Shown: positions 2,942-63,099, counted from the whole stretch's first letter. The stretch: DNA of 63,099 bases, filler included, from a bacterium (GCA_030615855.1; 6 parts of 6 records of this genome joined end to end with filler, not necessarily neighbours in it), one strand, 5' to 3'. Program-made: numbers and translations. Notes: generated by a model from the sequence alone, not told the origin.

Positions 2942-3110
2942 TCAGGTTATCGGGTAATCGGTGAACAGTAAAAAGTAAAAGAGCGAGAAAGGGGGTAGAT
3001 AAATAGCGAAAGACGAGGAACGAAGGATGATTCAAGAGCAACCGATATTAACTGTTGTTAACCGTTATTAACTGATATTAACTGAGAGTAGGAAGTAAGG
3101 CGAGGACAAG

Positions 3111-5443: not shown

Positions 5444-7760
5444 CGCAAAGACGCCAAACGCTAAACCACAAAATACCTTACTTAAAGAAATAGTACTTTT
5501 TTCTTTTTGCTTAATTATCTTACTAAGTCTTATTCCGGCCTACGCTGAGGCTACGGTGGGTAGGCCGGTTCAGAATGAATTCGTTCGGGTAGAGGTCCTC
5601 TCCTCCCGGAATGAAAAAGGTCCTATTTCTAAAGACCTCTTTCGCTATCCACCCCAGGCTCAGCACCTCTCCTTAAAGATACTGAGCGGGTCCCATAGAG
5701 GAGAAATAGTCAGTTTTGACAATCATCTGGTTGGCCATCGGGGCTATGACATCTTCCTCGATCCTGGGGATAAAGTTCTTGTTCAGATAATCACCACACT
5801 TAGCGGGGAGATCTCCTCCCTCTCCTTAGTGAGCCATATAAGGGATAGGTTCATCCTGCTTCTCATCCTCTTCTTTCTCCTTTCCTTAGTTCTGATGGGA
5901 GGCCTGAAGAAGGGTCTATCCACCGCTCTCTCCCTAATCCTCACCCTGGGCCTGGTCTTCTTCATTATGCTTCCCCTCTTAAAGCTCGGCTTTCCGCCAT
6001 TATTAGTGGGAGTCCTCATCTCCATTATTGCTGCTGCCCTAACCCTCTATTTAATCGGTGGAGGAGGGGTTAAAAGCCTTTCCGCCATCCTGAGCACCAT
6101 TATGGGAGTTCTGATCGTTGGGGGGTTGGCCCTGGTCGGTGCTCACTTCATGCACCTCAATGGTTATCATATGGAGGAATCGAAGACCCTGGTCTTCTAC
6201 CTCCGTCACTCTCTAACCTGCCGATTGAGCGATTTGCGGGGCCTCCTCCTGGTAGGAATTATTATCGGTGGGTTGGGAGTAATGATGGATGTGGCCATCA
6301 GTATGGCCTCCAGTGTCTATGAGATAAAGGGGGCTCACCCCAAGATCAGCCAGAAGGAACTGGTTAAGAGTGGGATGAACGTGGGAAGGGATATCATGGC
6401 CACCATGGCCAATAGCCTCATCCTGGCCTATCTGGGCCTCACCCTTCCCCTAATCCTGACCTTTATGATTATGGGTACCCCCTTCTTGCGTATCTCTAAC
6501 TGGGCCTTCCTGGATGTCGAGATCCTGGCTGCCCTGGCAGGGAGTATCGGCTTTGTCCTGGTCATTCCTCTAACAGTAATAATAACTACTACCCTTTTAT
6601 ACAAGAGGATTCCCTTCTCCGGAATCAAAAGGGCAGCAATCATTCTTCTGCTACTTCTGACCCTGGGAACCGGGGTTCATGCTAAAGATGGCGGGGAGCT
6701 TCTACCGGAGTCTGAGCTTCGCACCCATCCCCTGGTCTTCATTAAGGAAAGAGAGGAGGAGTTTGTTCGGGGAAAGGTTTTAGATATAGATAGAAAAGGC
6801 CCTAAAGAAGAGATAATCACCTTTAAGGTCTTAGGGGGAAGATATAAGAATAGAGTAGTGGATGTACCAAATTACCTAACAGGTAGACCCCAGTACGACC
6901 TTCTATTCAAAGAGGGCGACCAGGCACTCCTTCGCCTATCCCAGGAAGAGTTCTTCATCGCTGACTATGTTCGAGATAGGTTTCTATTCATTCTGGCGGG
7001 AGTATTCATTGCTCTTCTAATCCTGATTGGTAGAGCAAAGGGCCTGCGCACCGCCCTGGCTCTGGGGATAACCTTAGCTCTGGTCCTCTTCCTCTTCCTG
7101 CCTCTTATTAGACTCGGGTTTCCCCCTCTTCCCTTGAGTATTCTGGTCTCCATTCTAGCCACTCTATTTACTCTCTATCTTGTGGCCGGCTTTGGAATTA
7201 AGGGACACTGCGCTATTCTGGGAACCTCCCTGGGTATCCTCATCGCCGCTTTTCTATCCTTAGGAGCAAAGGAGATTTTAAAGATTACTGGCTTCAGCTC
7301 TGAAGGGATAAGGGCCTTAAGTTACTTCTCCCGCCATTATGGAGGAGACCTTATTACCGATATGGGAGGTGTTCTTACCTCAGCCATCATTATTGGTGCC
7401 CTGGGTGTAGTCATGGATGTAGCCATTACTGTCTCTTCTAGTATGTCAGAGATAAAGGGGGCCTATCCCGGGATCGGCCAGAAGGAACTGGTCAAGAGGG
7501 GAATGAACGTGGGAAGAGATATCATGGCCACCATGGCCAATAGTCTCATCCTGGTCTATCTGGGGGGAGGTCTATTAGCCCTCATGATCTATATCGCGGG
7601 AGAATTTCCCCTCATTCAAATCATGAATACAGAATTTGTTGCCTTAGAGGTAACCCGGGCCTTGGCAGGAAGCCTGGGATTTGTCTTCGTCATTCCTGCT
7701 ACGGCTCTCATCAGTGGGTACTGGCTATCTAAACCACTGAGAACACGAAAGAGCAAGTGA
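5412..7760 (+). CDS. tandem (two-module) YibE/F-family membrane protein; start uncertain
   Basis: Two copies of IIG.LGV.MDVAI...GMNVGRDIMATMANSLIL.Y.G, each preceded by a signal-like segment and an extracytoplasmic domain. Confidence 0.8.
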   Translation: MRVMGSLKQSNAKTPNAKPQNTLLKEIVLFSFCLIILLSLIPAYAEATVGRPVQNEFVRVEVLSSRNEKGPISKDLFRYPPQAQHLSLKILSGSHRGEIVSFDNHLVGHRGYDIFLDPGDKVLVQIITTLSGEISSLSLVSHIRDRFILLLILFFLLSLVLMGGLKKGLSTALSLILTLGLVFFIMLPLLKLGFPPLLVGVLISIIAAALTLYLIGGGGVKSLSAILSTIMGVLIVGGLALVGAHFMHLNGYHMEESKTLVFYLRHSLTCRLSDLRGLLLVGIIIGGLGVMMDVAISMASSVYEIKGAHPKISQKELVKSGMNVGRDIMATMANSLILAYLGLTLPLILTFMIMGTPFLRISNWAFLDVEILAALAGSIGFVLVIPLTVIITTTLLYKRIPFSGIKRAAIILLLLLTLGTGVHAKDGGELLPESELRTHPLVFIKEREEEFVRGKVLDIDRKGPKEEIITFKVLGGRYKNRVVDVPNYLTGRPQYDLLFKEGDQALLRLSQEEFFIADYVRDRFLFILAGVFIALLILIGRAKGLRTALALGITLALVLFLFLPLIRLGFPPLPLSILVSILATLFTLYLVAGFGIKGHCAILGTSLGILIAAFLSLGAKEILKITGFSSEGIRALSYFSRHYGGDLITDMGGVLTSAIIIGALGVVMDVAITVSSSMSEIKGAYPGIGQKELVKRGMNVGRDIMATMANSLILVYLGGGLLALMIYIAGEFPLIQIMNTEFVALEVTRALAGSLGFVFVIPATALISGYWLSKPLRTRKSK

Positions 7761-7874
7761 GAAAGTGGGAAAGTGGGAAAGTGAGTTGATAAGCTATCAA
7801 TCTATTAAGTATCTGTGATCTGTGGCAATCTGTATTTTATCTGTGTGAATCTGTGTTGTAAGGAGGTAAAGAGA

Positions 7875-9794: not shown

Positions 9795-9894
9795 NNNNNN
9801 NNNNNNNNNNNNNNNNNNNNNNNNNNNNNNNNNNNNNNTTAATTAATTAANNNNNNNNNNNNNNNNNNNNNNNNNNNNNNNNNNNNNNNNNNNN
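9795..9894. other. artificial scaffold linker
   Basis: N-run + TTAATTAATTAA + N-run, 100 bp. Confidence 0.98.
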
Positions 9895-10087: not shown

Positions 10088-10174
10088 GTATTTATCGCTT
10101 AAACATTAAAGTTCAGTTTAACAGTCTGACGGTCTGACAGTCCCACTTTCTCACTTTCCCACCTGCTCACTTTC

Positions 10175-11644
10175 TTACTTTGGGTACTTCTTCAACAATC
10201 CCGTCTTCTCGTTGAATTCCTTTATGAGTTTATCCCACTCTTTCCAGGAGTTGAACTTCTCCTTCCAGTAGTTATCGTCATACCACTGGCGGTCTAATTC
10301 CTCCACATCCTTGCCCTGTTGTTCTATCCAGGTAAAGTACTTCAGGTTATGCATCCTTCTCTTGTCCCAGTAGGAGAGTTCCAGCATCCAGTCTGTACTG
10401 ATACCCATCAGACAGCGATCAAAATCGGCCGCTGCATCACACTCGGCATACTTCCCTCTTTCCTCTCTCAATTCCTGATACCTGGACTGGTAAAGCTCCA
10501 TGGAGTCTGTGGCGATGGTGAAGACGATATCCTTCTCGTTCATCTCGTAATACTTGGCCATCTTGATGGAGCCGATGATATTGGCAACAGACGAGATACC
10601 AAGGAGATCGAGCCTATCCACAATCTCCGGGTCAACCCCCTTCTTCTTCAAATACTTTCTTCCCTTTGGCTCGTTAAAGAGTCTTAAAATTCTCATACAT
10701 TGTTCATCATCGATGTCCGCCACCATATCCATATTCTTTACATTATGTATCCAGGGAACGTGCTTATCACCAATCCCTTCGATTCTGTGGCCTCCATATC
10801 CTGTAAATAAGAGTGTAGGACACTGCAGGGCTTCTCCAGCACAGACCTTTATGGTGGGAAACTTCTCCCGTAAGTAATCGGCACAGCCCAAGGTTCCTGC
10901 TGAACCCTGAGTTAAGAAAATAGCCTTAAGCATTTGATCCTTTTCCTTCTCCTTTTCATAGACCTCTTCTATGGCCTGGCCGGTAACCACATAGTGCCAG
11001 AGGGGATTCCCTATCTCATCGAATTGATTTAAGACTACCACTTCATCCGGTCTGGCATTCTTCAGTTCAGCGGTCTTATCATAGACTTCTTTTACATTCG
11101 ATTCTACTCCCGGAGTAGCATAGATTTCGGAACCCACTTTTTTCAGCCACTCAAACCTCTCTTTAGACATCCCCTCCGGTAATACGGCAATAGAAGGACA
11201 ATTAAGGAGATAAGCATTGTAGGCTCCACCCCGGCAATAGTTTCCAGTCGAAGGCCATAATGCCTTCTGAGTAGTAGGATCGAACTCCCCTTTAACCAGA
11301 CGAGATACTAAGGGCCCGAAGGTCGCTCCCACTTTATGGGAACCAGTAGGAAACCATTTACCAATAATGATAAATATCCTGGCCTTTATTCCAGTTATTT
11401 CTTTAGGGAGTTCCATATAGTTTACCCCATCGAATCCACCACCGGATTTCACCGGTTCATTCTTCCAGGTAATTCTGAACATATTCCTGGAATGTAAATC
11501 CCAGAGACCGATATTCTTCAATTCATCCTTAATGTCCTGGGGAACCTGCTCCGGATGCCTCATCTCCTCATAGGTGGGAAGAATGATATCCCTCTCCCGA
11601 CACCTCTTGATAGTGTTCTCCAAAACCTTCTTTTTATCTTTCAT
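10175..11644 (-). CDS. PLP-dependent fold-type II enzyme (cysteine synthase/ammonia-lyase-like)
   Basis: FPTGSHKVGA (PLP lysine), WPSTGNYCRGG, GSAGT, HRIEGIGDKH; AAGGAGG RBS. Confidence 0.75.
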   Translation of the reverse strand: MKDKKKVLENTIKRCRERDIILPTYEEMRHPEQVPQDIKDELKNIGLWDLHSRNMFRITWKNEPVKSGGGFDGVNYMELPKEITGIKARIFIIIGKWFPTGSHKVGATFGPLVSRLVKGEFDPTTQKALWPSTGNYCRGGAYNAYLLNCPSIAVLPEGMSKERFEWLKKVGSEIYATPGVESNVKEVYDKTAELKNARPDEVVVLNQFDEIGNPLWHYVVTGQAIEEVYEKEKEKDQMLKAIFLTQGSAGTLGCADYLREKFPTIKVCAGEALQCPTLLFTGYGGHRIEGIGDKHVPWIHNVKNMDMVADIDDEQCMRILRLFNEPKGRKYLKKKGVDPEIVDRLDLLGISSVANIIGSIKMAKYYEMNEKDIVFTIATDSMELYQSRYQELREERGKYAECDAAADFDRCLMGISTDWMLELSYWDKRRMHNLKYFTWIEQQGKDVEELDRQWYDDNYWKEKFNSWKEWDKLIKEFNEKTGLLKKYPK

Positions 11645-11775
11645 CTCTCCCTCCTTGAGACACAGATTAACACAGATTGATTACGGATTCACACAGATCA
11701 CAGATAATTGCAGATTTAAAATTGCGATAGTTGAATTGTCATTCGCTCATTCGTGCGAATGTTTCTAGTATCTAT

Positions 11776-13152
11776 TTACTTATTAAATCTCTCCCAGAGT
11801 TTTTGGGCTAATTCTTGGGATTTGGCAGTTATCTTCTCTTCATCAATACCGACCAATCTCTTATTCTCCATCAAGACTTTGCCATTGACGATGGTGGTAT
11901 CTACTGTAGCATCAACCAGGCCAAAAATCAAGTGGCCCAGGAAGTTATTTTCATTCAAAGGCGTAGGCGGTAAATAATCGATGAGTATCACATCGGCCAA
12001 AGAGCCAGCCGAAATCTCTCCTAATTTCCCAAAGGGTGTTACTTGACTGACAATCTTTGGATTATTCTCCAATAGCATCCTTGGGGCTTCCATAAAGGCC
12101 ACCCGAGGGTCTTTCTTTTCATTCCGAGCGATGAGATAGGCGCACCTCATCTGGGAAAGCATATCGGAAGACATTCCATCCGTTCCCAGACCAACCATAA
12201 CTCCTTTCTCGAGCATCTTCAGAACATCGGCCCAGCCCACGGCATTATTCATATTGGACTCTGGATTATGAACTAAGTTGGTCTTAGTCTCTTTTAAGAT
12301 GTCCATCTCTCTCTCATCGAGATGAACACCGTGAACCAGGATGCTCTTCGGTCCAAGCACCCCTTTATCCTTAAAGCGTTCCACCACCCGTTTCCCATAC
12401 TTCTTCACACTATCCTCTTCATCTGCTTTGTCTTCTGCGCAGTGAATATGGATTCCCACATCATACTTCTTGGCTAATCCCACTGCCTTTTCTAAGGTAT
12501 CATCGTTGACGGTAAAAGAAGCATGTAGTCCAACCATGGCAGAAACCAAGTTATTGGTAGTTCGGAGTTCGGAGTTCGGAGTTCGGAGTTTTTTGAGAAA
12601 ACGCTCGCTCTCTTCCAATCCTTCCTTGCCCTTATCATACCTATCCGATATCCCAAGACATAAACAGGAACGAATGCCAATCTCTCCTGCTGCCTTTTCC
12701 AACTCATCCAGGCTCCCTACTTGATAGGTCTGGCTCTCATGATGATCAATGATAGTGGTGGTTCCATTCCTCACACACTCTATTAAAGGAATTAAAGCAC
12801 TATAGTAAATATCTTCCTTATTTAAGGTCTTATCCAATGGCCACCAGAGTTTCTCTAATATCTCAACGAAGTTCTTGGCTGGCTCACCTGGAATGGCCAT
12901 CCCCCGGGCAAGGGTAGAATAGAGATGGTGATGAGTATTAATCAATCCCGGCATTATCACCTTCCCTCTGGCGTCAATAGATTGATAGTTCGGAGTTCGG
13001 AGTTCGGAGTTCGGAGTATACTTCTTCTTTAACTCGGAAGTAGGACCTACATCTTTGATTACACTATTTTCAATGTAAACTGCTCCATTTTCGATAATTC
13101 TGTTCTCTTTCCCCAAGGTAACTACTGTTCCCTTCTCAATCAGAATACCCAT
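11776..13152 (-). CDS. ssnA: aminohydrolase SsnA (two in-frame repeat insertions)
   Basis: PGLINTHHHLYSTLARG, GLHASFT, HIHCAE, HNPESNMNNAVG, GLGTDG. Confidence 0.85.
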   Translation of the reverse strand: MGILIEKGTVVTLGKENRIIENGAVYIENSVIKDVGPTSELKKKYTPNSELRTPNYQSIDARGKVIMPGLINTHHHLYSTLARGMAIPGEPAKNFVEILEKLWWPLDKTLNKEDIYYSALIPLIECVRNGTTTIIDHHESQTYQVGSLDELEKAAGEIGIRSCLCLGISDRYDKGKEGLEESERFLKKLRTPNSELRTTNNLVSAMVGLHASFTVNDDTLEKAVGLAKKYDVGIHIHCAEDKADEEDSVKKYGKRVVERFKDKGVLGPKSILVHGVHLDEREMDILKETKTNLVHNPESNMNNAVGWADVLKMLEKGVMVGLGTDGMSSDMLSQMRCAYLIARNEKKDPRVAFMEAPRMLLENNPKIVSQVTPFGKLGEISAGSLADVILIDYLPPTPLNENNFLGHLIFGLVDATVDTTIVNGKVLMENKRLVGIDEEKITAKSQELAQKLWERFNK

Positions 13153-13153
13153 C

Positions 13154-13924
13154 TTAACCTCCAATGAATTCTTTTGCTTTGTCGGAGAGGATTCTTCTTC
13201 GGCACTTGGGACAGATCTCGAGTGCCTCTTCCGGTAACTCTATCTCTTCAAAGGATTTTATCTTATCTTTAAGGTGCTCCAATTCTACTAAAGGAATGAA
13301 GTATTTTCCACAAACCTTACACTTTTTTAGTTCCAGTTTAGTATTCCAGAAGTCCAGTTTTCGATATTTTATAATGTCCTCAATCTTAATCACCCCTGTG
13401 GGACAGAGATAGGCACAGGCACCACAACCGATGCACTCTGAAGATTCTATTTTGAAGGGGGTAGTTACCTCCCTATCTGCTCCTCGGTTAATAAAACTGA
13501 TGGCGCTCTTGCCAATCATTTCCTCGCAGACCCGGACACAGAGACCACACAGGATGCACTCTTCTTCCTCTTCTTTAAATCTTGTTTTCTTTACTCCTAA
13601 CTTTGAGGCGAGTTCTCTTATCTTCTCTGAAGTAGGACAACGGGCCAACAAAAGTTCGATGCTCAGGCACCGGGCTCTCTTTACCCTTTCAGTATTTGTT
13701 TTTGCTATCAACCCTTCTTCAGCGGGATAGGTGCAAGAGGCGACCAATCCGGGCCGGGAACCCTTAATGACTTCTACCAGACAGACCCGACAGGCACCGT
13801 AGGGCTTGAGGGCTTGGTGGTGGCAGAGGGTAGGAATCTCAACACCCAACTTCTGAGCGGCCCCCAAAAGGGTAACCCCCTCCTCAACCCCTATTTTTTT
13901 ATTGTCAATAGTCAGTTTTATCAT
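13154..13924 (-). CDS. [2Fe-2S]/[4Fe-4S] protein, NuoG/HydA N-terminal-like, without catalytic domain
   Basis: IPTLCHH..GACRVCLVE..ASC, CILCGLCVRVC, CIGCGACAYLCP, C-terminal CKVC/CPKC. Confidence 0.8.
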   Translation of the reverse strand: MIKLTIDNKKIGVEEGVTLLGAAQKLGVEIPTLCHHQALKPYGACRVCLVEVIKGSRPGLVASCTYPAEEGLIAKTNTERVKRARCLSIELLLARCPTSEKIRELASKLGVKKTRFKEEEEECILCGLCVRVCEEMIGKSAISFINRGADREVTTPFKIESSECIGCGACAYLCPTGVIKIEDIIKYRKLDFWNTKLELKKCKVCGKYFIPLVELEHLKDKIKSFEEIELPEEALEICPKCRRRILSDKAKEFIGG

Positions 13925-15662: not shown

Positions 15663-15762
15663 NNNNNNNNNNNNNNNNNNNNNNNNNNNNNNNNNNNNNN
15701 NNNNNNTTAATTAATTAANNNNNNNNNNNNNNNNNNNNNNNNNNNNNNNNNNNNNNNNNNNN
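15663..15762. other. artificial scaffold linker
   Basis: N-run + TTAATTAATTAA + N-run. Confidence 0.98.
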
Positions 15763-16717: not shown

Positions 16718-16924
16718 TCTCTACTCCATTTATAGGATACGTCTATCGGTTGCGGTTGCGTAACTCGTCACGGCTATCGTTGAGTAAAATCAAAAATGAA
16801 AAATGAAAATGGAAAATTACAATGCAAAATGTAAAATTACAAATCAAAACTCATTAATTTTGATATTTGATCTTTAATATTTAATTTTTCAGCGCAACCC
16901 TTCAACGTATAACGAAGAACGAGT

Positions 16925-24019: not shown

Positions 24020-24156
24020 TTCTTTTTTTCCTTAACCTACCTTCGGCAAATTTGCCGATTATCGTTAATCGGTTGCGGTTGCATATATTAAGGATGGGGA
24101 TGGGTAGTGAATTGTGCAACCTTTCAACGTATGACGAAGTAACTTCTTCCTAATTT

Positions 24157-24185
24157 ACCATAGCATAAAAGAATATCAATGTCAA
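24157..24185 (-). promoter_or_regulatory. sigma70-like promoter for the nucleotidase/ABC operon
   Basis: TTGACA-17 bp-TATGGT with extended TG. Confidence 0.55.
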
Positions 24186-24302
24186 CGATTGCTTATCTTC
24201 TTCCCGATTTACTCTGTCAGATAAGACCCAAAACAACCTTTGGCATAGTATTCTTTATTCCTTCTGTTACATAAAGGACGAGTTCAATATTACCGTTGCC
24301 AT

Positions 24303-25052
24303 CTATCTAACGGGGTTAATGATGCTGGCTAAGTATCCGGCGCCGAAGCCATTATCGATATTGACTACCGCCACACCACTTGAGCAGGTATTGAGCATAG
24401 TGAGAAGGGCTGAAAGGCCCTTGAAGCTCGCCCCATAGCCCACAGAGGTGGGAACAGCGATCACAGGGCAAGAGACAAGACCAGCGATGACGCTTGCCAG
24501 GGCCCCTTCCATTCCGGCAATGACGATAATAACCTTTGCTTTTAAGAGCCTCTCTTTTTGAGCAAGCAATCTTTGGAGGCCGGCCACGCCAATATCATAT
24601 ATCTTCTCTACTCTATTTCCCATAATCTTCAGGGTGACGATGGCCTCTTCTGCTACCGGGATATCTGCTGTTCCTGCGGTGACTACTAAGACTACTCCCC
24701 TCTTAACCCTTGGCTTCTTTTTCTGGATGGAGATTATTCTTCCTTCCTTATAGTACTTACAATTTGGGAAGCGTTTCTTAATTGCTCTATATATCTTTTC
24801 GCTTGCCCTAGTGGCTACACAGTCGCTTCCCCTCTTCACCATGCTATCTATAATCTTCTCTATCTGTCCTGTGTTCTTTCCCGGACAAAGAATGACCTCA
24901 GGAAATCCTTTTCTCAAGGCCCGATGGGTATCTATCTTGGCAAATCCCAGATCCTCAAAGGGCAGGAAGCGTAGTTCATTCATAGCCTCATCAATCCCTA
25001 TCTTCCCTGCCTTCACTTTTTTCAACAGTCTCTCAATATCCTTAGCATCCAT
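24303..25052 (-). CDS. larB: nickel-pincer cofactor carboxylase LarB
   Basis: DTHRALRKGFPE, AGTADIPVAEEA, AGMEGAL, VNIDNGFGAG. Confidence 0.9.
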   Translation of the reverse strand: MDAKDIERLLKKVKAGKIGIDEAMNELRFLPFEDLGFAKIDTHRALRKGFPEVILCPGKNTGQIEKIIDSMVKRGSDCVATRASEKIYRAIKKRFPNCKYYKEGRIISIQKKKPRVKRGVVLVVTAGTADIPVAEEAIVTLKIMGNRVEKIYDIGVAGLQRLLAQKERLLKAKVIIVIAGMEGALASVIAGLVSCPVIAVPTSVGYGASFKGLSALLTMLNTCSSGVAVVNIDNGFGAGYLASIINPVR

Positions 25053-25078
25053 TTCGACTTCTTTCTCTAACCAGAATA

Positions 25079-25407
25079 GGTTAACAAGTTAACAAGGATA
25101 CAAGTTAACAAGATATAGGTTAGGTCAAAGGGTAACGGTAACGAAGCCCGTATCGGTAACGTTGATAGGCTAGGTAAATTTAAAGAGAATATCAGATTAT
25201 CAGAGCATCAGATGGAGAAAGGCAGATATCAGAATTCAGATTAAATCTGATATTCTGGCCATCTGAAATCTCATTCTGGTATTCTGATGTTCTGATACTC
25301 TTTTTTACGACCGCCGTAACCGTAACCGCTAAACGAAACGGGCATCGTAACCCTAACCGTAACTGGATGTTGCCTTATTAACTTGTCAACTAATCAACTT
25401 GTCAACT
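25079..25407. repeat. three nested inverted tandem-repeat pairs (A-B-C-C'-B'-A')
   Basis: A GTTAACAA / A' CTTGTCAA; B GGTAAC / B' GTAACC with GCCCGT/ACGGGC; C ATATCAGA / C' TCTGATAT. Confidence 0.85.
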
Positions 25408-26210
25408 GTCTTGAGGGCTTCATCCATACTCCCGCTTCGATAGCCCTCCAGATCGAGGGCGATATAGGTATAGCCCATTCTTTTCAATCTATTGATAACC
25501 TTTTTTCTTATATCTTTCTTCACCAGGATTTTTATTTCTCTTGGATTGACCTCAATCCTTGCCATATCTTCATGATCTCTTAAACGTACCTCTTTTAGGC
25601 CAAGACCTCTCAAGAACTCCTCACCCTTCTCTATCCTTTCTAGTCTCTTTTTGGTTATTCTCTCTCCATAGGGGATCCTGGTCGCCAGACAGGTCTGAGA
25701 AGGGCTATTCCAGGTGGAAAGTCCTAATTCCTTAGATAGCTTGCGGATCTCTTTTTTCCTCAATCCTACCTCTGCCAAGGGACTCCTTATTTTCAATTCC
25801 CTTAAGGCCTTCTTGCCTGGACGAAAGGACCTCAGATCATCGTAGTTTGAACCATCGAGAACAAACCGAAGACCGTTCTTTCTAGCAATTCTCTTTAATT
25901 CCTTAAAAAGTTCTTTTTTGCAGAAGTAACATCTATCAGCGGTGTTTTTAATAAAATCTTCATTCCCGCATTCCCGGGAATGTGAGATGAGATGTTTCAC
26001 CCTCAATTGCCGGGCTAACTCCTTTGCTTCCTTCACTTCATAAGAGAAGTGGATGGGTGAGGAGGAGGTCACTGCCACTACCTTATTCCTTAAGACATCA
26101 GAGGCTACCTTTAATAGGAAGGTAGAATCCACCCCACCAGAGAAAGCGATTAAAGTACTTCTCATCTCTTTCAAATTTTCTTCAAGTCTTTTTAACTTTT
26201 TATTCGCCAA
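25386..26210 (-). CDS. larE: ATP-dependent sulfur transferase LarE
   Basis: AFSGGVDS, RCYFCK, DGSNYDD, RPG, SQTCLATRIPYG. Confidence 0.9.
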   Translation of the reverse strand: MANKKLKRLEENLKEMRSTLIAFSGGVDSTFLLKVASDVLRNKVVAVTSSSPIHFSYEVKEAKELARQLRVKHLISHSRECGNEDFIKNTADRCYFCKKELFKELKRIARKNGLRFVLDGSNYDDLRSFRPGKKALRELKIRSPLAEVGLRKKEIRKLSKELGLSTWNSPSQTCLATRIPYGERITKKRLERIEKGEEFLRGLGLKEVRLRDHEDMARIEVNPREIKILVKKDIRKKVINRLKRMGYTYIALDLEGYRSGSMDEALKTVDKLIS

Positions 26211-28199: not shown

Positions 28200-28397
28200 C
28201 TCCACCTCCTTTATATACAGATTTCCACAGATATTTACAGATCAACACAGATCACAGATAATTGCGAATCTTTGAGAATATCAGAATATCAGAGTATCAG
28301 AATGAGAATTCAGAAATCAGATTTCAGATTTTATCTGGTATTCTAGTAATCTGATACTCTTTTCACTTTGCATTGCTAATTTTGCATTTTTCATTTT

Positions 28398-33707: not shown

Positions 33708-33755
33708 TCAGGAGAAAGTGGGAAAGTGAGCAGGTGAGAAAGTGAGAATACTGAA

Positions 33756-38091: not shown

Positions 38092-38125
38092 CTCTAACCT
38101 CGATTCATATCTATTATTTGGTTAC

Positions 38126-38231
38126 GGTTAAGGTTAGGTTGTTGGTTTAGTTGCTGGGTTAGGTAGTTGGTCTTTTTAAAAACACCTAACTCTTACCTAA
38201 CTACTAAACTCACTACCTTACCCTAACCCAA
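38126..38231. repeat. dispersed hairpin element, copy 1 (copy 2 at 46084-46185)
   Basis: GGTTAAGGTTAGGT...CTTT/AAA...TACCCTAACCCAA; 10 substitutions in about 99 aligned arm positions versus copy 2. Confidence 0.9.
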
Positions 38232-39775: not shown

Positions 39776-41065
39776 CTATTTTCTCAGCCAGTGCAGGGGA
39801 TTTTCGGGTGCACCATCCTTCCTCATCTCGAAGTAGAGATAGGGTCCTTTCTTGGAGGCCGTCTGGCCCACCTTGCCGATCAATTGAACCCCTTCTACTT
39901 CCTGATTCTCTTTAACCAGGATGCTATCCAGATGGGCATAGAGGGTGTAGTAGCCCCCTCCGTGAGCGATCATGACCATCTTTCCATATTCTCTTAACCC
40001 CGGTTTCTGCGACCACTGGGCAAAGACTATTCTTCCCTTTGATACCGCCCACACCTCTTGACCTTTCGGGGCCTTGATGTCAATCCCCTCATGAGGGGTA
40101 TATGTCTTATACTGAGGATGTTGATGCTTCCCATAGCGTTTTGTTATCTGGTGGCTTATGGTCGGCCAGGGAAGGCGGCCCTTCTTCTGCCTGAAGGCCA
40201 AAGAGGCGAGCCTCGCCTGCTCTATAGTCTCCTTCTTCTTGGCTTCCAGATTTCTAATCAAGGCCTCCAGTTCCCTTGAGGCCTTCTTTAGTTTCCTAAC
40301 TCTCTTCTCATAGGCCATCCTCTTTTTCTCTGTCTTGGTTAAAAGCGTTTCCTTCGCCCTCTTATTCTTCTCTATCTCAGTTTTTCTCTTTAAAGCTGCT
40401 TCTTTGTAGATAGTAATCCTTGCCTCTTTTTTCTCCAGAGACTCCTTCTCTTTTTCTCTCGCTTCTTTCCTTTCTTCATCCCCGGCTAACCGGTTAGCGT
40501 CGCAGGAGGCGATAATATTCATAGATTTCTTCTGTAGAATATTTTGGGGAAAGTCATGGGGATAGGAGGGGCTCTTTCCCTTGTAGATAACGATCAATCT
40601 TTCTCCCAGAGTATCCCGACTAGTTTTCAGTTCCGAGGTCGCCTCTTCCAAGTCCTTTTTCTTCTTCTCTAATTGTTTCTTAGTTTTCTTTAGGTTCTCA
40701 CCGTAGATAACGATCTCCTTCTTCTTGACTTCCAAATCCTTCTTGATTTTAGTAAGTCTCTTACGAAGGTTTCTTTCTTGGATCCTCTTCTTCTCTAACT
40801 CCTTCTTCTCGGTGGCAAGTTCCTTCTTTGCTTTCGTCTTCTCCTTCTCCTTCTCTTGAATCTCCTTGTCATACTCTTTAATCTTCTCCTCATAGGTAGC
40901 GAGGGCAGGAGATAAGTTGACAAGTTGACAAGTTGACAAGAAGATAAAACAAAAAATAAGTCTCTTATAACGAGTAGCCCTTGTCCTCCGTTCATTTGGC
41001 AAAGACGAAGAAGGCACAAAAGTTGGTAATTTTGTATTGTTAATTGCTAATTTTTCATTTTGCAT
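39776..41065 (-). CDS. envC: murein hydrolase activator EnvC-like (coiled coil + M23); start uncertain
   Basis: Signal-like segment, long coiled coil, GRLPWP, HEGIDI, YAHL, LYFEMR; lies between ftsX and ctpA. Confidence 0.8.
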   Translation of the reverse strand: MQNEKLAINNTKLPTFVPSSSLPNERRTRATRYKRLIFCFIFLSTCQLVNLSPALATYEEKIKEYDKEIQEKEKEKTKAKKELATEKKELEKKRIQERNLRKRLTKIKKDLEVKKKEIVIYGENLKKTKKQLEKKKKDLEEATSELKTSRDTLGERLIVIYKGKSPSYPHDFPQNILQKKSMNIIASCDANRLAGDEERKEAREKEKESLEKKEARITIYKEAALKRKTEIEKNKRAKETLLTKTEKKRMAYEKRVRKLKKASRELEALIRNLEAKKKETIEQARLASLAFRQKKGRLPWPTISHQITKRYGKHQHPQYKTYTPHEGIDIKAPKGQEVWAVSKGRIVFAQWSQKPGLREYGKMVMIAHGGGYYTLYAHLDSILVKENQEVEGVQLIGKVGQTASKKGPYLYFEMRKDGAPENPLHWLRK

Positions 41066-43558: not shown

Positions 43559-43658
43559 NNNNNNNNNNNNNNNNNNNNNNNNNNNNNNNNNNNNNNNNNN
43601 NNTTAATTAATTAANNNNNNNNNNNNNNNNNNNNNNNNNNNNNNNNNNNNNNNNNNNN
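43559..43658. other. artificial scaffold linker
   Basis: N-run + TTAATTAATTAA + N-run. Confidence 0.98.
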
Positions 43659-45391: not shown

Positions 45392-45561
45392 ATAAACCCC
45401 CATTCTAAGTTAAGTAATTTAGTTAACAAGTTGATAAGTTAATAAGTTAACAAGTCAGTGAAAATTCTCTATTTGGTTATTGGAAATTAGAAATTGGATA
45501 TTGGAAATTAAATCACGTGGGCTTTACTCCCACTTTCTCACCTGCTCACTTTCCCATTTTC

Positions 45562-46047: not shown

Positions 46048-46083
46048 AAAACCTCCATAAAGGGTTAAGGGTTAAGAGTTAAG

Positions 46084-46185
46084 GGTTAAGGTTAGGTAGT
46101 TAGTTTAGTTGTTAGGTCAGGTAGTTGGTCTTTAAACACCTAACCCTTACCCAACTACCAAACCCACTACTTTACCCTAACCCAA
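46084..46185. repeat. dispersed hairpin element, copy 2
   Basis: Aligns end to end with 38126-38231; preceded by an extra (AGGGTTA)n array. Confidence 0.9.
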
Positions 46186-46207
46186 TTATCAAAGATGTTT
46201 CCTATTC

Positions 46208-48876: not shown

Positions 48877-49008
48877 AATATACCTCCTTGTAAAATAGTT
48901 GACAAGTTGACAAGTTAACAAGTTGAAGAGTTGAAAAATCTAACAAACTAACAAGCAAGCAAACTAACAAACTAAGATTCTTTACTCACCCCTGTTTCCT
49001 ACTTGAAA

Positions 49009-56325: not shown

Positions 56326-56340
56326 GATAGGCCTCCTCTA

Positions 56341-56500
56341 AATCGGTTACTATCGGTTAAAAACGGTTAATTTCATTCGGTTAATAACGGTTACTATCGG
56401 TTAATAAAATAAAGTTAAGTGATATGTTGGTTAATATCGGTTGCTTTTTCGCAACTGATATTAACTGGTATTAACCAATATTAACTGATGTGAACTGTTA
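56341..56500. repeat. inverted 10-mer arrays (AATATCGGTT / AACYGATATT)
   Basis: GTTAATATCGGTTGC-tttttc-GCAACTGATATTAAC centre; related arrays at 3040-3085 and 4929-5050. Confidence 0.85.
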
Positions 56501-58019: not shown

Positions 58020-58119
58020 NNNNNNNNNNNNNNNNNNNNNNNNNNNNNNNNNNNNNNNNNNNNTTAATTAATTAANNNNNNNNNNNNNNNNNNNNNNNNN
58101 NNNNNNNNNNNNNNNNNNN
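58020..58119. other. artificial scaffold linker
   Basis: N-run + TTAATTAATTAA + N-run. Confidence 0.98.
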
Positions 58120-61474: not shown

Positions 61475-61574
61475 NNNNNNNNNNNNNNNNNNNNNNNNNN
61501 NNNNNNNNNNNNNNNNNNTTAATTAATTAANNNNNNNNNNNNNNNNNNNNNNNNNNNNNNNNNNNNNNNNNNNN
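61475..61574. other. artificial scaffold linker
   Basis: N-run + TTAATTAATTAA + N-run. Confidence 0.98.
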
Positions 61575-62315: not shown

Positions 62316-62432
62316 CTCTCCTGCTTACTTTCATTTTACATTGAACATTGAACATTAAGCATTGAGCATTTTGCACTTTGCATTGAACTTCTGCCCTTTC
62401 ACCGTTTCCCCGTTTCTCCCTTTCTCCGCTTC

Positions 62433-63099
62433 TCACTTTCTCACTTTCTCACCTGCTCCCTGCCTCAAGATTTCCCTGGCAACTTCTCTATCGTCGAAGG
62501 AAAGAACCTGGGTTCCAATGGTTTGGGTGGTCTCATGCCCCTTTCCTGCGACTAAGACTAGGTCTCCTGAACCTGCCTCTTCTATTGCCTTCCTGATGGC
62601 CTCCTTCCGATCGAGGATGATGGTATATCTCCCCCCTCCCCTCTTCATCCCTACCTCAATGCTTGAGGCAATACTCAAAGGCTCCTCACTCCTGGGATTA
62701 TCATTGGTGATTATGGTGTAGTCGCTATATTGTGCTGCCACCTCACCCATCAAGGGCCTCTTCGATCTATCCCGATCCCCGCCACAGCCAAAGACTAAGA
62801 TTATCCTTCCCTTTGTCAATTCCCGACAGGTTGAGAGCATATTCTCTAAAGCGTTGTCTGTATGGGCATAGTCAATGATCATCCAGAAGTCCTGGCCCTC
62901 ATCGATCCTCTCAAACCTTCCCGGGATATTCTCTACCCTCTCCAGGCCCTCCTTAATGGCAGTGGGAGGGATTTTCAGAAGAAAAGCAACCCCGATGGCA
63001 GCCAAGGCATTGTAGATGTTATGCTTTCCGGGAAGAGGGAGGTCAATATTCAGATCTCCTCCTTTTGTCTTCACCTTAAAACTACTCCCTTTTAGGCTT
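62433..63099 (-). CDS. murE: MurE ligase, C-terminal part
   Basis: PGRFE, DYAHT, FGCGGDRD, DNPR, AGKGHE. Confidence 0.95.
   Translation of the reverse strand, partial: SLKGSSFKVKTKGGDLNIDLPLPGKHNIYNALAAIGVAFLLKIPPTAIKEGLERVENIPGRFERIDEGQDFWMIIDYAHTDNALENMLSTCRELTKGRIILVFGCGGDRDRSKRPLMGEVAAQYSDYTIITNDNPRSEEPLSIASSIEVGMKRGGGRYTIILDRKEAIRKAIEEAGSGDLVLVAGKGHETTQTIGTQVLSFDDREVAREILRQGAGEKVRK

Follow-up and report, generated by a model that had tools for sequence, protein, structure and literature searches.

To our knowledge, intergenic tandem arrays of 7-8 nt units have been described for more than 30 years from cyanobacteria, Beggiatoaceae, Xanthomonas and Geobacter, and there is still no agreement on how they arose or what they do. 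The cyanobacterial STRR heptamer arrays described by Mazel in 1990 are reportedly intergenic and sometimes arranged as inverted pairs, and the cyanobacterial small dispersed repeats described by Elhai in 2008 are said to be tiny hairpins inserted in one another and in heptamer arrays. MITEs and the foldback elements of eukaryotes are non-coding sequences that occur in many copies, possess inverted arms and are found as nested insertions; the arms of foldback elements consist of short tandem repeats.

In the passages of Aklujkar et al (2009, PMC2700814) that deal with repeats of Geobacter metallireducens, paired arrays of classes 1-3 are presented as “putative global regulator binding sites” and are taken as sites of IHF/HU. 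A pair contains four octamers GTTGCTYN, three TCTCCGTS[Y] units or five heptamers MTYCTGA. The two arrays are on opposite strands and their distance varies; such pairs occur at dozens of sites, most of them intergenic and one of them between proB and proA, and some sites combine two classes (PMC2700814). TAACTGA direct repeats are described for marine Beggiatoaceae, Cyanobacteria and Bacteroidetes (MacGregor 2015, PMC4679880). These arrays of 2-6 copies are mostly intergenic, in forward orientation, and located shortly before start codons or across the end of the preceding ORF; the passages concerned give one inverted case in 170 sets and no predicted secondary structure (PMC4679880). An excess of heptamer SSRs is reported for Nostoc and Xanthomonas in the corresponding part of Rehm (2015, PMC4692102). 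The sequences known as REP, BIME and REPIN are described as short high-copy extragenic palindromes that form hairpins and build mosaic clusters between the genes of operons; they are thought to be non-autonomous mobile DNA, and a role in stabilising mRNA has been proposed (PMC3116915, Bertels and Rainey 2011; PMC3733652, Di Nocera 2013). A REP measures 20-40 bp, carries a conserved tetranucleotide tag and has a cognate RAYT gene, as far as the passages used here state (PMC3116915).

The spacer between larE and larB

We analysed 63,099 nucleotides of DNA, in the following called the window, from an uncultured sediment bacterium. The window is made up of six draft-genome contigs with N linkers in between and has a G+C content of 45%. 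The contig at 15763-43558 carries on its minus strand a string of genes for a heptose epimerase, a deoxyhypusine-synthase-like protein, malate dehydrogenase, LarE, LarB and a 5'-nucleotidase. The spacer between larE and larB comprises 333 nt (25053-25385). A first-pass annotation of this DNA had reported A, B, C, a centre, C', B' and A' in this order, and each of them is present in the sequence at these places. The features are as follows:

24303..25052, minus strand: larB, nickel pincer cofactor biosynthesis protein (NF033503, E 2e-88)
25053..25079, minus strand: larB leader, not included in the hairpin, purine-rich ahead of the ATG
25080..25112, minus strand: A, outer 3' arm, GTTAACAA-type octamers (sense CTTGTTAAC-type), ending 27 nt upstream of the larB ATG
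25113..25129, minus strand: unpaired spacer between B and A
25130..25165, minus strand: B, 3' arm of the B-family element, GGTAAC units plus GCCCGT core, shorter than B'
25182..25305, no strand assigned: C hairpin in the B loop, arms 25182-25240 and 25245-25305 (44/62)
25235-25249: centre of C, TCAGA-TTAAA-TCTGA; C is built of ATCAGA-type octamers
25306..25363, minus strand: B', 5' arm of the B-family hairpin, GGTTAC/GGTTAG units flanking a unique GATGCCCGTTTCG core
25364..25373, minus strand: unpaired spacer between A' and B', an internal loop in the fold (5/17 complementarity with 25113-25129)
25374..25407, minus strand: A', 5' outer arm in the mRNA, approximately four octamers of the GTTGACAA type in sense direction, 25/33 identical to the reverse complement of A
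25386..26210, minus strand: larE, ATP-dependent sacrificial sulfur transferase (TIGR00268, E 1e-95, residues 5-262 of 274)
28274..28363, no strand assigned: stand-alone paralog of C, in the large spacer that comes next in this string of genes
38105..38231, no strand assigned: B-superfamily hairpin with short loop (“empty” state), 67% to positions 9-119 of the 121-nt element of genome G005, included in A1 and A2
46060..46200, no strand assigned: second B-superfamily hairpin with short loop, 66% over positions 1-118 of the G005 element, included in A1 and A2
45421..45457, minus strand: unpaired A-type array, 17 nt upstream of the start of an aldehyde:ferredoxin oxidoreductase gene, in the same sense orientation as A
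40906..40952, minus strand: unpaired A-type array near the 5' end of an M23 peptidase ORF, 125 nt inside the ORF as called (true start uncertain)
48890..48937, minus strand: unpaired A-type array that extends over the TTG called as start of a dihydropyrimidine-dehydrogenase-like gene

Each of the modules A, B and C consists mostly of imperfect tandem units of 6-8 nt. Repeat searches recover both the arrays and the pairs of arms (I2, 33 nt, 76% complementary; I1, 37 nt, 76%). The overlap of A' with the end of larE, also part of the first-pass annotation, is borne out by the stop codon TGA at 25386-25388, and as this codon lies within A' the last seven codons of larE are encoded by the array. 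Contigs of relatives cease to align at 25420, approximately at LarE residue 263, and the TIGR00268 profile ends at residue 262 of 274. As the homology to relatives and the family profile both end at about residue 262-263, the array-encoded tail of LarE is taken to be specific to this lineage.

Comparison with the described systems

The structures of the window resemble the Geobacter arrays in form: three to five tandem units of 7-9 nt, pairing on opposite strands at variable distance, multiple copies, and an intergenic location. Regarding the units themselves, MTYCTGA fits ATTCTGA units in C', TCTCCGTS fits a TCTCCGTG array in locus L083 of another organism, and GTTGCTYN shares GTTG with A'; these are agreements of 7-8 nt motifs, compared by the published consensus only, and may be due to chance. 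Nesting and the insertion of hairpins, with which we are concerned here, are not discussed in the passages on the Geobacter arrays, which are presented solely as supplementary alignments (PMC2700814).

With the TAACTGA system the window appears to share rules of position and orientation, and 10-mers containing TAACTGA occur at 3040-3085 and 56453-56497. Whereas one heptamer dominates in that system as described, dozens of units are found here, many of them mirrored and nested, and the A-type arrays at start codons of the window are octamers of a sequence other than TAACTGA. REP and REPIN sequences are similar in that they form hairpins, are extragenic and have a mosaic build; unlike in the REPs as described, the arms here are tandem arrays (33-60 nt) or composite arms of 45 nt, and no tracking with a Y1 transposase was seen among 25 incomplete genomes. 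The cyanobacterial STRR arrays and small dispersed repeats differ from the present ones in that they belong to other phyla and are made of other units. Features in common with MITEs are the many dispersed non-coding copies with inverted arms and the occurrence of filled and empty sites between paralogs. Unlike for MITEs, neither a clear target-site duplication nor a terminal motif common to all families nor an autonomous partner was found in the window and the fetched copies. In our literature searches we found no description of nested tandem-array hairpins in these lineages.

Fold stability and symmetry

The potential hairpin of about 330 nt put forward in the first-pass annotation is supported by RNA folding, which yields one long imperfect hairpin of approximately 328 nt for the spacer. 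In sense direction, 25053-25420 reaches -127.6 kcal/mol compared to -78.8 +/- 5.0 in 100 dinucleotide shuffles (z -9.9), none of which was as stable; the fold of the plus strand has -120.6 (z -7.8). Among 25 spacers of the window the one between larE and larB shows the most extreme fold (z -12.2).

This stability is lost in repeat-rich controls. Block permutation preserves the repeat units and scrambles their order: for 25080-25407, with a native value of -123.7, mean energies of -78.3, -82.6 and -94.7 were obtained with blocks of 8, 16 and 33 nt, and the native value was reached by none of 100 permutations in each case. If A', B' and C' are reordered, the energy weakens from -118.4 to between -80 and -101. 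Chimeras composed of the halves of 17 repeat-rich window spacers matched the native energy per nucleotide in one out of 272 cases.

The idea that all three pairs of arms are symmetric about a single axis stands with regard to the three mirrored layers, and needs correction with regard to the axis. The latter is approximate only (best gap-free axes at 25229-25247.5), because the arms differ by insertions and deletions. They are imperfect copies of each other, with 25/33 matches for A, 44/62 for C and, after gapping, 30/58 for B, the arms of which measure 36 and 58 nt. The variant units of A are not mirrored in A', so that A and A' are possibly arrays which have grown independently. The spacers that flank B are complementary at 5 of 17 positions.

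Arrays across the window and in other organisms

Nearly every spacer of the window is filled with imperfect arrays whose units measure 6-10 nt, and in many instances an array is followed by its reverse complement. An array of this kind is present in 23 of the 34 spacers that are free of N and at least 40 nt long. Array density amounts to 29.7 per mille in the window; 160 loci from other organisms have a median of 3.3, and only four of them, all short, lie above the window. Of 1876 array bases 1213 are located within spacers, which make up 5602 of 62659 window bases (9%). The arrays abut or overlap start and stop codons. Sense orientation was observed for the A-type arrays at four out of four genes and for the GAGAAAGTG arrays in five out of five cases. 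At these four genes the A-type arrays lie 17-27 nt upstream of the start or over it, and one of them has a mirrored partner. The larE-larB stack is thus one example of array-hairpins that occur genome-wide, and not a special lar element.

Within the arrays of the window 66-85% of positions match. Together with the unique core of the B arms and the mirrored partners, which go beyond the controls, this rules out microsatellites that arose by slippage only. The view that the arrays are “not simple microsatellites” can also be upheld on other grounds, as the core of the B arms is non-repetitive and B and C are dispersed with copies elsewhere: both in the window and in metagenome contigs, and B in other genomes as well. 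The collection of plasmids contained no match to the stretch.

Similar arrays, including two-layer nesting, were found in the unrelated loci L002, L083, L060, L063 and L124, all of which had been fetched incidentally with LarB. L002 belongs to a metagenome-assembled genome (MAG) of the Omnitrophota and has its array directly upstream of larB. The larE-larB junctions of two unrelated MAGs also carry similar arrays (L013, Anaerolineae, 129 nt; L098, 32 nt). The strict pattern of the A hairpin was found in none of the 25 genomes of the phylum to which G005 belongs. A purine-rich arm on the 5' side was counted in 17 of 25 window spacers (pooled 55%; sign test p 0.11, not significant). We further report that a bias towards a purine-rich 5' arm is strong in L083, L063 and L124.

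The junction in relatives and in metagenome contigs

We examined 180 loci, 33 of which have larE upstream of larB within 1.5 kb. In these other organisms the spacer between both genes is short: 25 of the 33 fall between -82 and +34 nt, and mostly the genes overlap by 4 nt. As these junctions are tight, we regard the stack of 333 nt as the later filling of an originally tight junction. LarB identity does not exceed 62% among the matches listed for genome contigs and metagenome contigs.

Contigs from four sediment metagenomes of four studies were aligned on 24303-26210 at a likeness of at least 80%. The summed depth of contigs over bins of the spacer is several-fold to twenty-fold that over the genes, which is a sum over organisms and not a copy number. 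In all four runs there are contigs that join A directly to A' (skipping 258-268 nt, with 0-21 letters in between) and contigs that join B directly to B' (skipping 159-178 nt, with loops of approximately 30-36 nt). The flanks of these joints are short, 18-34 nt for A-A' and 18-63 nt across both kinds, and the joints are therefore attributed to other loci or organisms and not to the larE-larB junction. They show that hairpins of A only and of B only exist, at places other than this junction.

X6 record 18, a contig obtained in an independent study, aligns over only 245 of its 343 nt and spans 25146-25383, with 23 differences and 9 gaps. Since it contains B-C-B', this arrangement is no assembly artefact of the window record. 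A further contig (X4 record 12) shows an identity of 96% in larE (28 differences in 667) and of 90% in larB, and has 260 unaligned letters in the place of 368 in the window (25051-25420); in X2 record 3 the same junction contains 199 letters. That the spacer differs in a relative with a 96% identical larE indicates that it turns over far faster than the genes.

The B family and the C hairpin in its loop

The stretch 25323-25358 of B', which includes the non-repeat core, was found in at least seven places of genome G005 with 82-89% identity. This genome had been reached via a LarB locus, and in it B takes the form of a hairpin of approximately 120 nt. The 121-nt element from G005 matches 9 of 25 species genomes of the same phylum, with 23 matches in G005 itself, 22 in G013, 28 in G014, 10 in G026 and 5 in G012. 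The window holds three copies of B, the one between larE and larB and two without an insert.

In alignment A1 both B arms of the larE-larB spacer match eleven other copies, nine of which have loops of 10-25 nt. The larE-larB copy differs from these nine by one block exactly at the position of the loop, and this block is the C hairpin. C itself has a counterpart in the next large spacer: 25185-25266 and 28274-28354 are 82% identical over 82 nt (E 1e-16), and 25275-25304 and 28334-28363 are 87% identical over 30 nt. The comparison of these copies provides good support for the proposal that the C hairpin was inserted into the loop of B. No clear target-site duplication is seen on the flanks of C, and for neither C nor B could a target-site duplication or clean ends be delimited. 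The C family is nearly absent from the 25 genomes of the G005 phylum, with three weak matches.

Other copies of B carry other inserts. We fetched 32 distinct further copies, which were picked so that both kinds are included, and the following counts are therefore not frequencies: 20 have short loops and 12 have inserts of 21 to approximately 390 nt, the loop inserts being either approximately 30-90 nt or approximately 390 nt long. A 21-nt palindrome is located in the right arm of the copies L168, L216 and L211, and some right arms contain hairpins of approximately 70 nt. L209 and L210 are B copies with two array-hairpins made of CCTGA-type heptamers. L170 has in its flank a 35-nt hairpin that its paralog L166 lacks; the insert in L170 lies in a run of T, where a duplication could comprise 2 nt at most. 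Four small inserts start with CCTG and finish with CAGG. The terminal unit CTAACC is present in six copies in L169 compared to about two in other B copies, and this expansion shows that slippage acts on B elements, too.

The first-pass annotation had explained the layers by successive insertions, each into the centre of the previous element. For C within B this is backed by the nine short-loop copies of A1 and by the other inserts in other copies. For B within A the support is indirect: the spacers on both sides of B are non-complementary (5/17), as would be the case for a loop that has been split, and hairpins of A only exist at other loci, to which the contigs that join A to A' directly are attributed. 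We consider it plausible that B was inserted within A, and the layers may fairly be read as reflecting the sequence in which they arrived. It could also be that B moved as one unit with C already inside.

If the B copies are aligned, 88.4% of cells are paired in register compared to 27-51% if the arms are slid by 1-3 columns. Covariation amounts to 0.065 versus 0.068 in shuffles, 362 of 500 shuffles being at least as high. As covariation does not rise above the shuffles, conservation of the sequence accounts for the high degree of pairing. This combination is more in line with an element that is spreading and whose copies are young than with an old structured RNA. The RNAalifold consensus of 21 B copies contains only nine pairs, and no strand preference was observed for the family (11/21).

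TsaD of the window is 57-64% identical to that of the G005 phylum and 48-58% to that of five genomes of other groups. This suggests, without settling it, that the host organism is probably a member or a neighbour of this small candidate phylum (25 species) with no close relative there. The Y1 transposase PF01797 was found above the cut-off in 17 of the 25 genomes, namely in 6 of 9 with B and in 11 of 16 without B. Among these 25 incomplete genomes no association between the B family and Y1/RAYT was seen, and a scan of 57 ORFs of the window revealed no transposase.

Transcription and possible role

On the minus strand of 25053-25385 neither a promoter-like nor a terminator-like site is predicted. 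An intrinsic terminator was considered and rejected, as A is followed by CCTATTCTGG and no run of T, in keeping with the lack of a predicted terminator-like site on this strand. With no promoter or terminator predicted, the mRNA of larE and larB probably includes the stack, which would be an imperfect duplex of approximately 150 bp between the two cistrons. Such a transcribed stack would break the translational coupling of larE and larB. The duplex could represent a barrier to 3'-exonucleases or a substrate for double-strand RNases, and the stack may also be neutral baggage. A search of Rfam gave no match at the gathering score, only chance-level ones with E 0.4-0.7. Strand asymmetry provided no usable signal: among 19 co-directional window spacers the sense fold had the lower energy in 14 and the lower z in only 8.

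Origin of the stack

We think it on the whole probable that the spacer is a pile-up of three small hairpin-forming non-coding modules, i.e. nested copied DNA that is passively carried in the larE-larB transcript. The comparison with other organisms shows that larE and larB were once tightly joined as in most bacteria. A pair of octamer arrays, A and A', would then have come to flank the junction. A dispersed and apparently mobile B hairpin of approximately 110-120 nt would have landed between the A arms, a step which is suggested because the flanking spacers are non-complementary and B is an independent element. Finally the C hairpin landed in the single-stranded loop of B, as the alignment with insert-free copies shows. 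The modules would behave like miniature mobile or copied DNA, with the tips of hairpins as a favored landing place.

The stack might also have grown in place without any insertion, by slippage and fold-back (template-switch) copying, and the units shared between places would then reflect a constraint, e.g. binding sites of abundant DNA- or RNA-binding proteins. Several observations agree with this: the number of terminal units varies (six CTAACC in L169 compared to about two), the variant units of A and A' are not mirrored, unpaired arrays abut start or stop codons in fixed orientation (A-type 4/4, GAGAAAGTG 5/5), and independent similar arrays are present at the larE-larB junctions of L013 and L098. 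The paired arrays of 7-9 nt units in G. metallireducens are likewise read as regulator sites in the passages cited (PMC2700814), and so are heptamer arrays at start codons (PMC4679880; bioRxiv 10.1101/2022.06.06.494920). Growth in place nevertheless seems unlikely to us, as it leaves unexplained the 82-nt copy of C with 82% identity 3 kb away, the unique core of the B arms with ordered sub-motifs common to other genomes, and the fact that paralogs differ cleanly by entire hairpins, which they either have or lack.

Seen from the operon, the stack could be a dedicated regulatory RNA of lar, which for example sets the ratio of LarE to LarB or responds to a signal. Its fold is the most extreme of the 25 window spacers (z -12.2), translation up to the larE stop inside A' would have to open the outer helix, and A ends 27 nt before the larB start. 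However, conservation of the operon does not extend to this structure, as 34 nt or less are present at 25 of 33 other junctions; a relative with 96% identity in larE has a different spacer; the same modules are found beside unrelated genes; no Rfam family matches; and the leader and start of larB are located outside the helix, all of which makes a lar-specific RNA very improbable. We give hardly any credence to an assembly artefact, in which repeat-rich reads of a draft MAG would have been mis-joined as a palindrome. The window does consist of six N-linked contigs, repeats are a classical cause of mis-assembly, and none of the listed contigs spans the whole stretch. Run X1 contains a fraction of 0.99 of the sampled words, though, and the contig from the other study covers 25146-25383 (B-C-B') with 23 differences. 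Furthermore, with a likeness of only 71-76% the arms cannot be collapsed copies, and like structures occur in many independent assemblies.

Significance

Taken as a nested pile-up of hairpin-forming modules, the finding is a variant of small hairpin-forming dispersed repeats in a little-studied group. More speculatively, and with doubt prevailing on our side, array-hairpins could be a distinct and unnamed kind of very small self-nesting mobile DNA that consists almost entirely of subrepeats of 6-8 nt, preferring exposed hairpin tips and present in several uncultured phyla, perhaps also in Geobacter; its mover would be neither a classical MITE transposase nor a RAYT. If this is true, nested landings would leave a layered record of the order of insertions. 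As the two strands of a hairpin have the same reading, any operon would moreover receive an identical RNA module with each insertion, the purine-rich arm coming first.

From a practical point of view, stacks of this kind would break the translational coupling within operons and are likely break points in the assembly of MAGs. They also add repeat-encoded tails to proteins, e.g. the final seven residues of LarE. This locus and its kin offer a handle on how the arrays originate: a B family with dozens of copies in several genomes and in filled and empty states, hairpins within the loops of hairpins, and a rapid turnover of the spacer between strains which are 96% alike in the flanking gene. The readings as mobile DNA and as regulator sites can now be tested on existing sediment metagenomes. 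The finding is of value less for the lar operon than as a clean case on which ideas about the origin of intergenic heptamer and octamer arrays can be tested.

Nested hairpins and mirrored arrays

Since the window consists of six draft-assembly contigs which were artificially joined, with runs of N around TTAATTAATTAA linkers at 9795-9894, 15663-15762, 43559-43658, 58020-58119 and 61475-61574, gene neighbourhood across these linkers is meaningless.

In four loci of genome G005 (L161, L167, L168 and L217), the B hairpin forms the central part of a longer repeat, which has inverted termini of approximately 27 nt (CTAGTG.C.TGTTGAG...TGCA). This position indicates that B itself is nested in a MITE-like element there. 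Within the window, the spacers 16718-16924 and 24020-24302 have an outer pair in common (GGTTGCGGTTGC ... GCAACC, then TCAACGTAT.ACGAAG) while the inner sequence differs between them, which looks like an additional nested family.

A two-layer hairpin is located directly upstream of larB in an Omnitrophota MAG (L002, 1660-1800). Its outer stem is formed by AATTACCAC and GTGGTAATT, and its inner arms are heptamer arrays of TAGGTCA and TGACCTA. Two 10-nt arrays of the window have a unit containing TAACTGA, the heptamer described in Beggiatoaceae, and in the region 56326-56500 the mirror partner of the TAACTGA-containing array is a CGGTTAAT-type array.

Most strong hairpins of the window spacers and of L083, L063 and L124, loci of unrelated organisms, possess a purine-rich 5' arm and a pyrimidine-rich 3' arm, a property that is identical on either strand. 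Its value is 80-86% in L083 and L063, but only 17/25 window spacers show it (p 0.11).

Arrays at gene ends, in leaders and in coding sequence

Short arrays in the window:
3040-3085 and 56453-56497, 10-nt arrays, unit containing TAACTGA
7755-7783, 10144-10181, 33712-33748, 45530-45561 and 62397-62450, GAGAAAGTG-type octamer arrays, all sense
11660-11710 and 28212-28260, ATCTGTG-type arrays, sense strand, with adjoining AATTGC motif, 5' leaders
12559-12590 and 12987-13017, perfect heptamer arrays, sense ACTCCGA, in frame

The GAGAAAGTG-type octamers, an unpaired family, show a strong orientation bias: 5/5 arrays are in sense orientation, immediately 3' of a stop codon or shortly 5' of a start. 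The ATCTGTG-type array with its AATTGC motif is a further dispersed module; in both leaders it occurs shortly 5' of the ribosome-binding site, preceding a PLP-enzyme gene and a deoxyhypusine-synthase-like gene.

Both ACTCCGA arrays (4.4-4.6 copies each) belong to the amidohydrolase ORF 11776-13164 and encode TPNSELRTPN-like inserts 428 nt apart, so coding sequence has also been entered by arrays.
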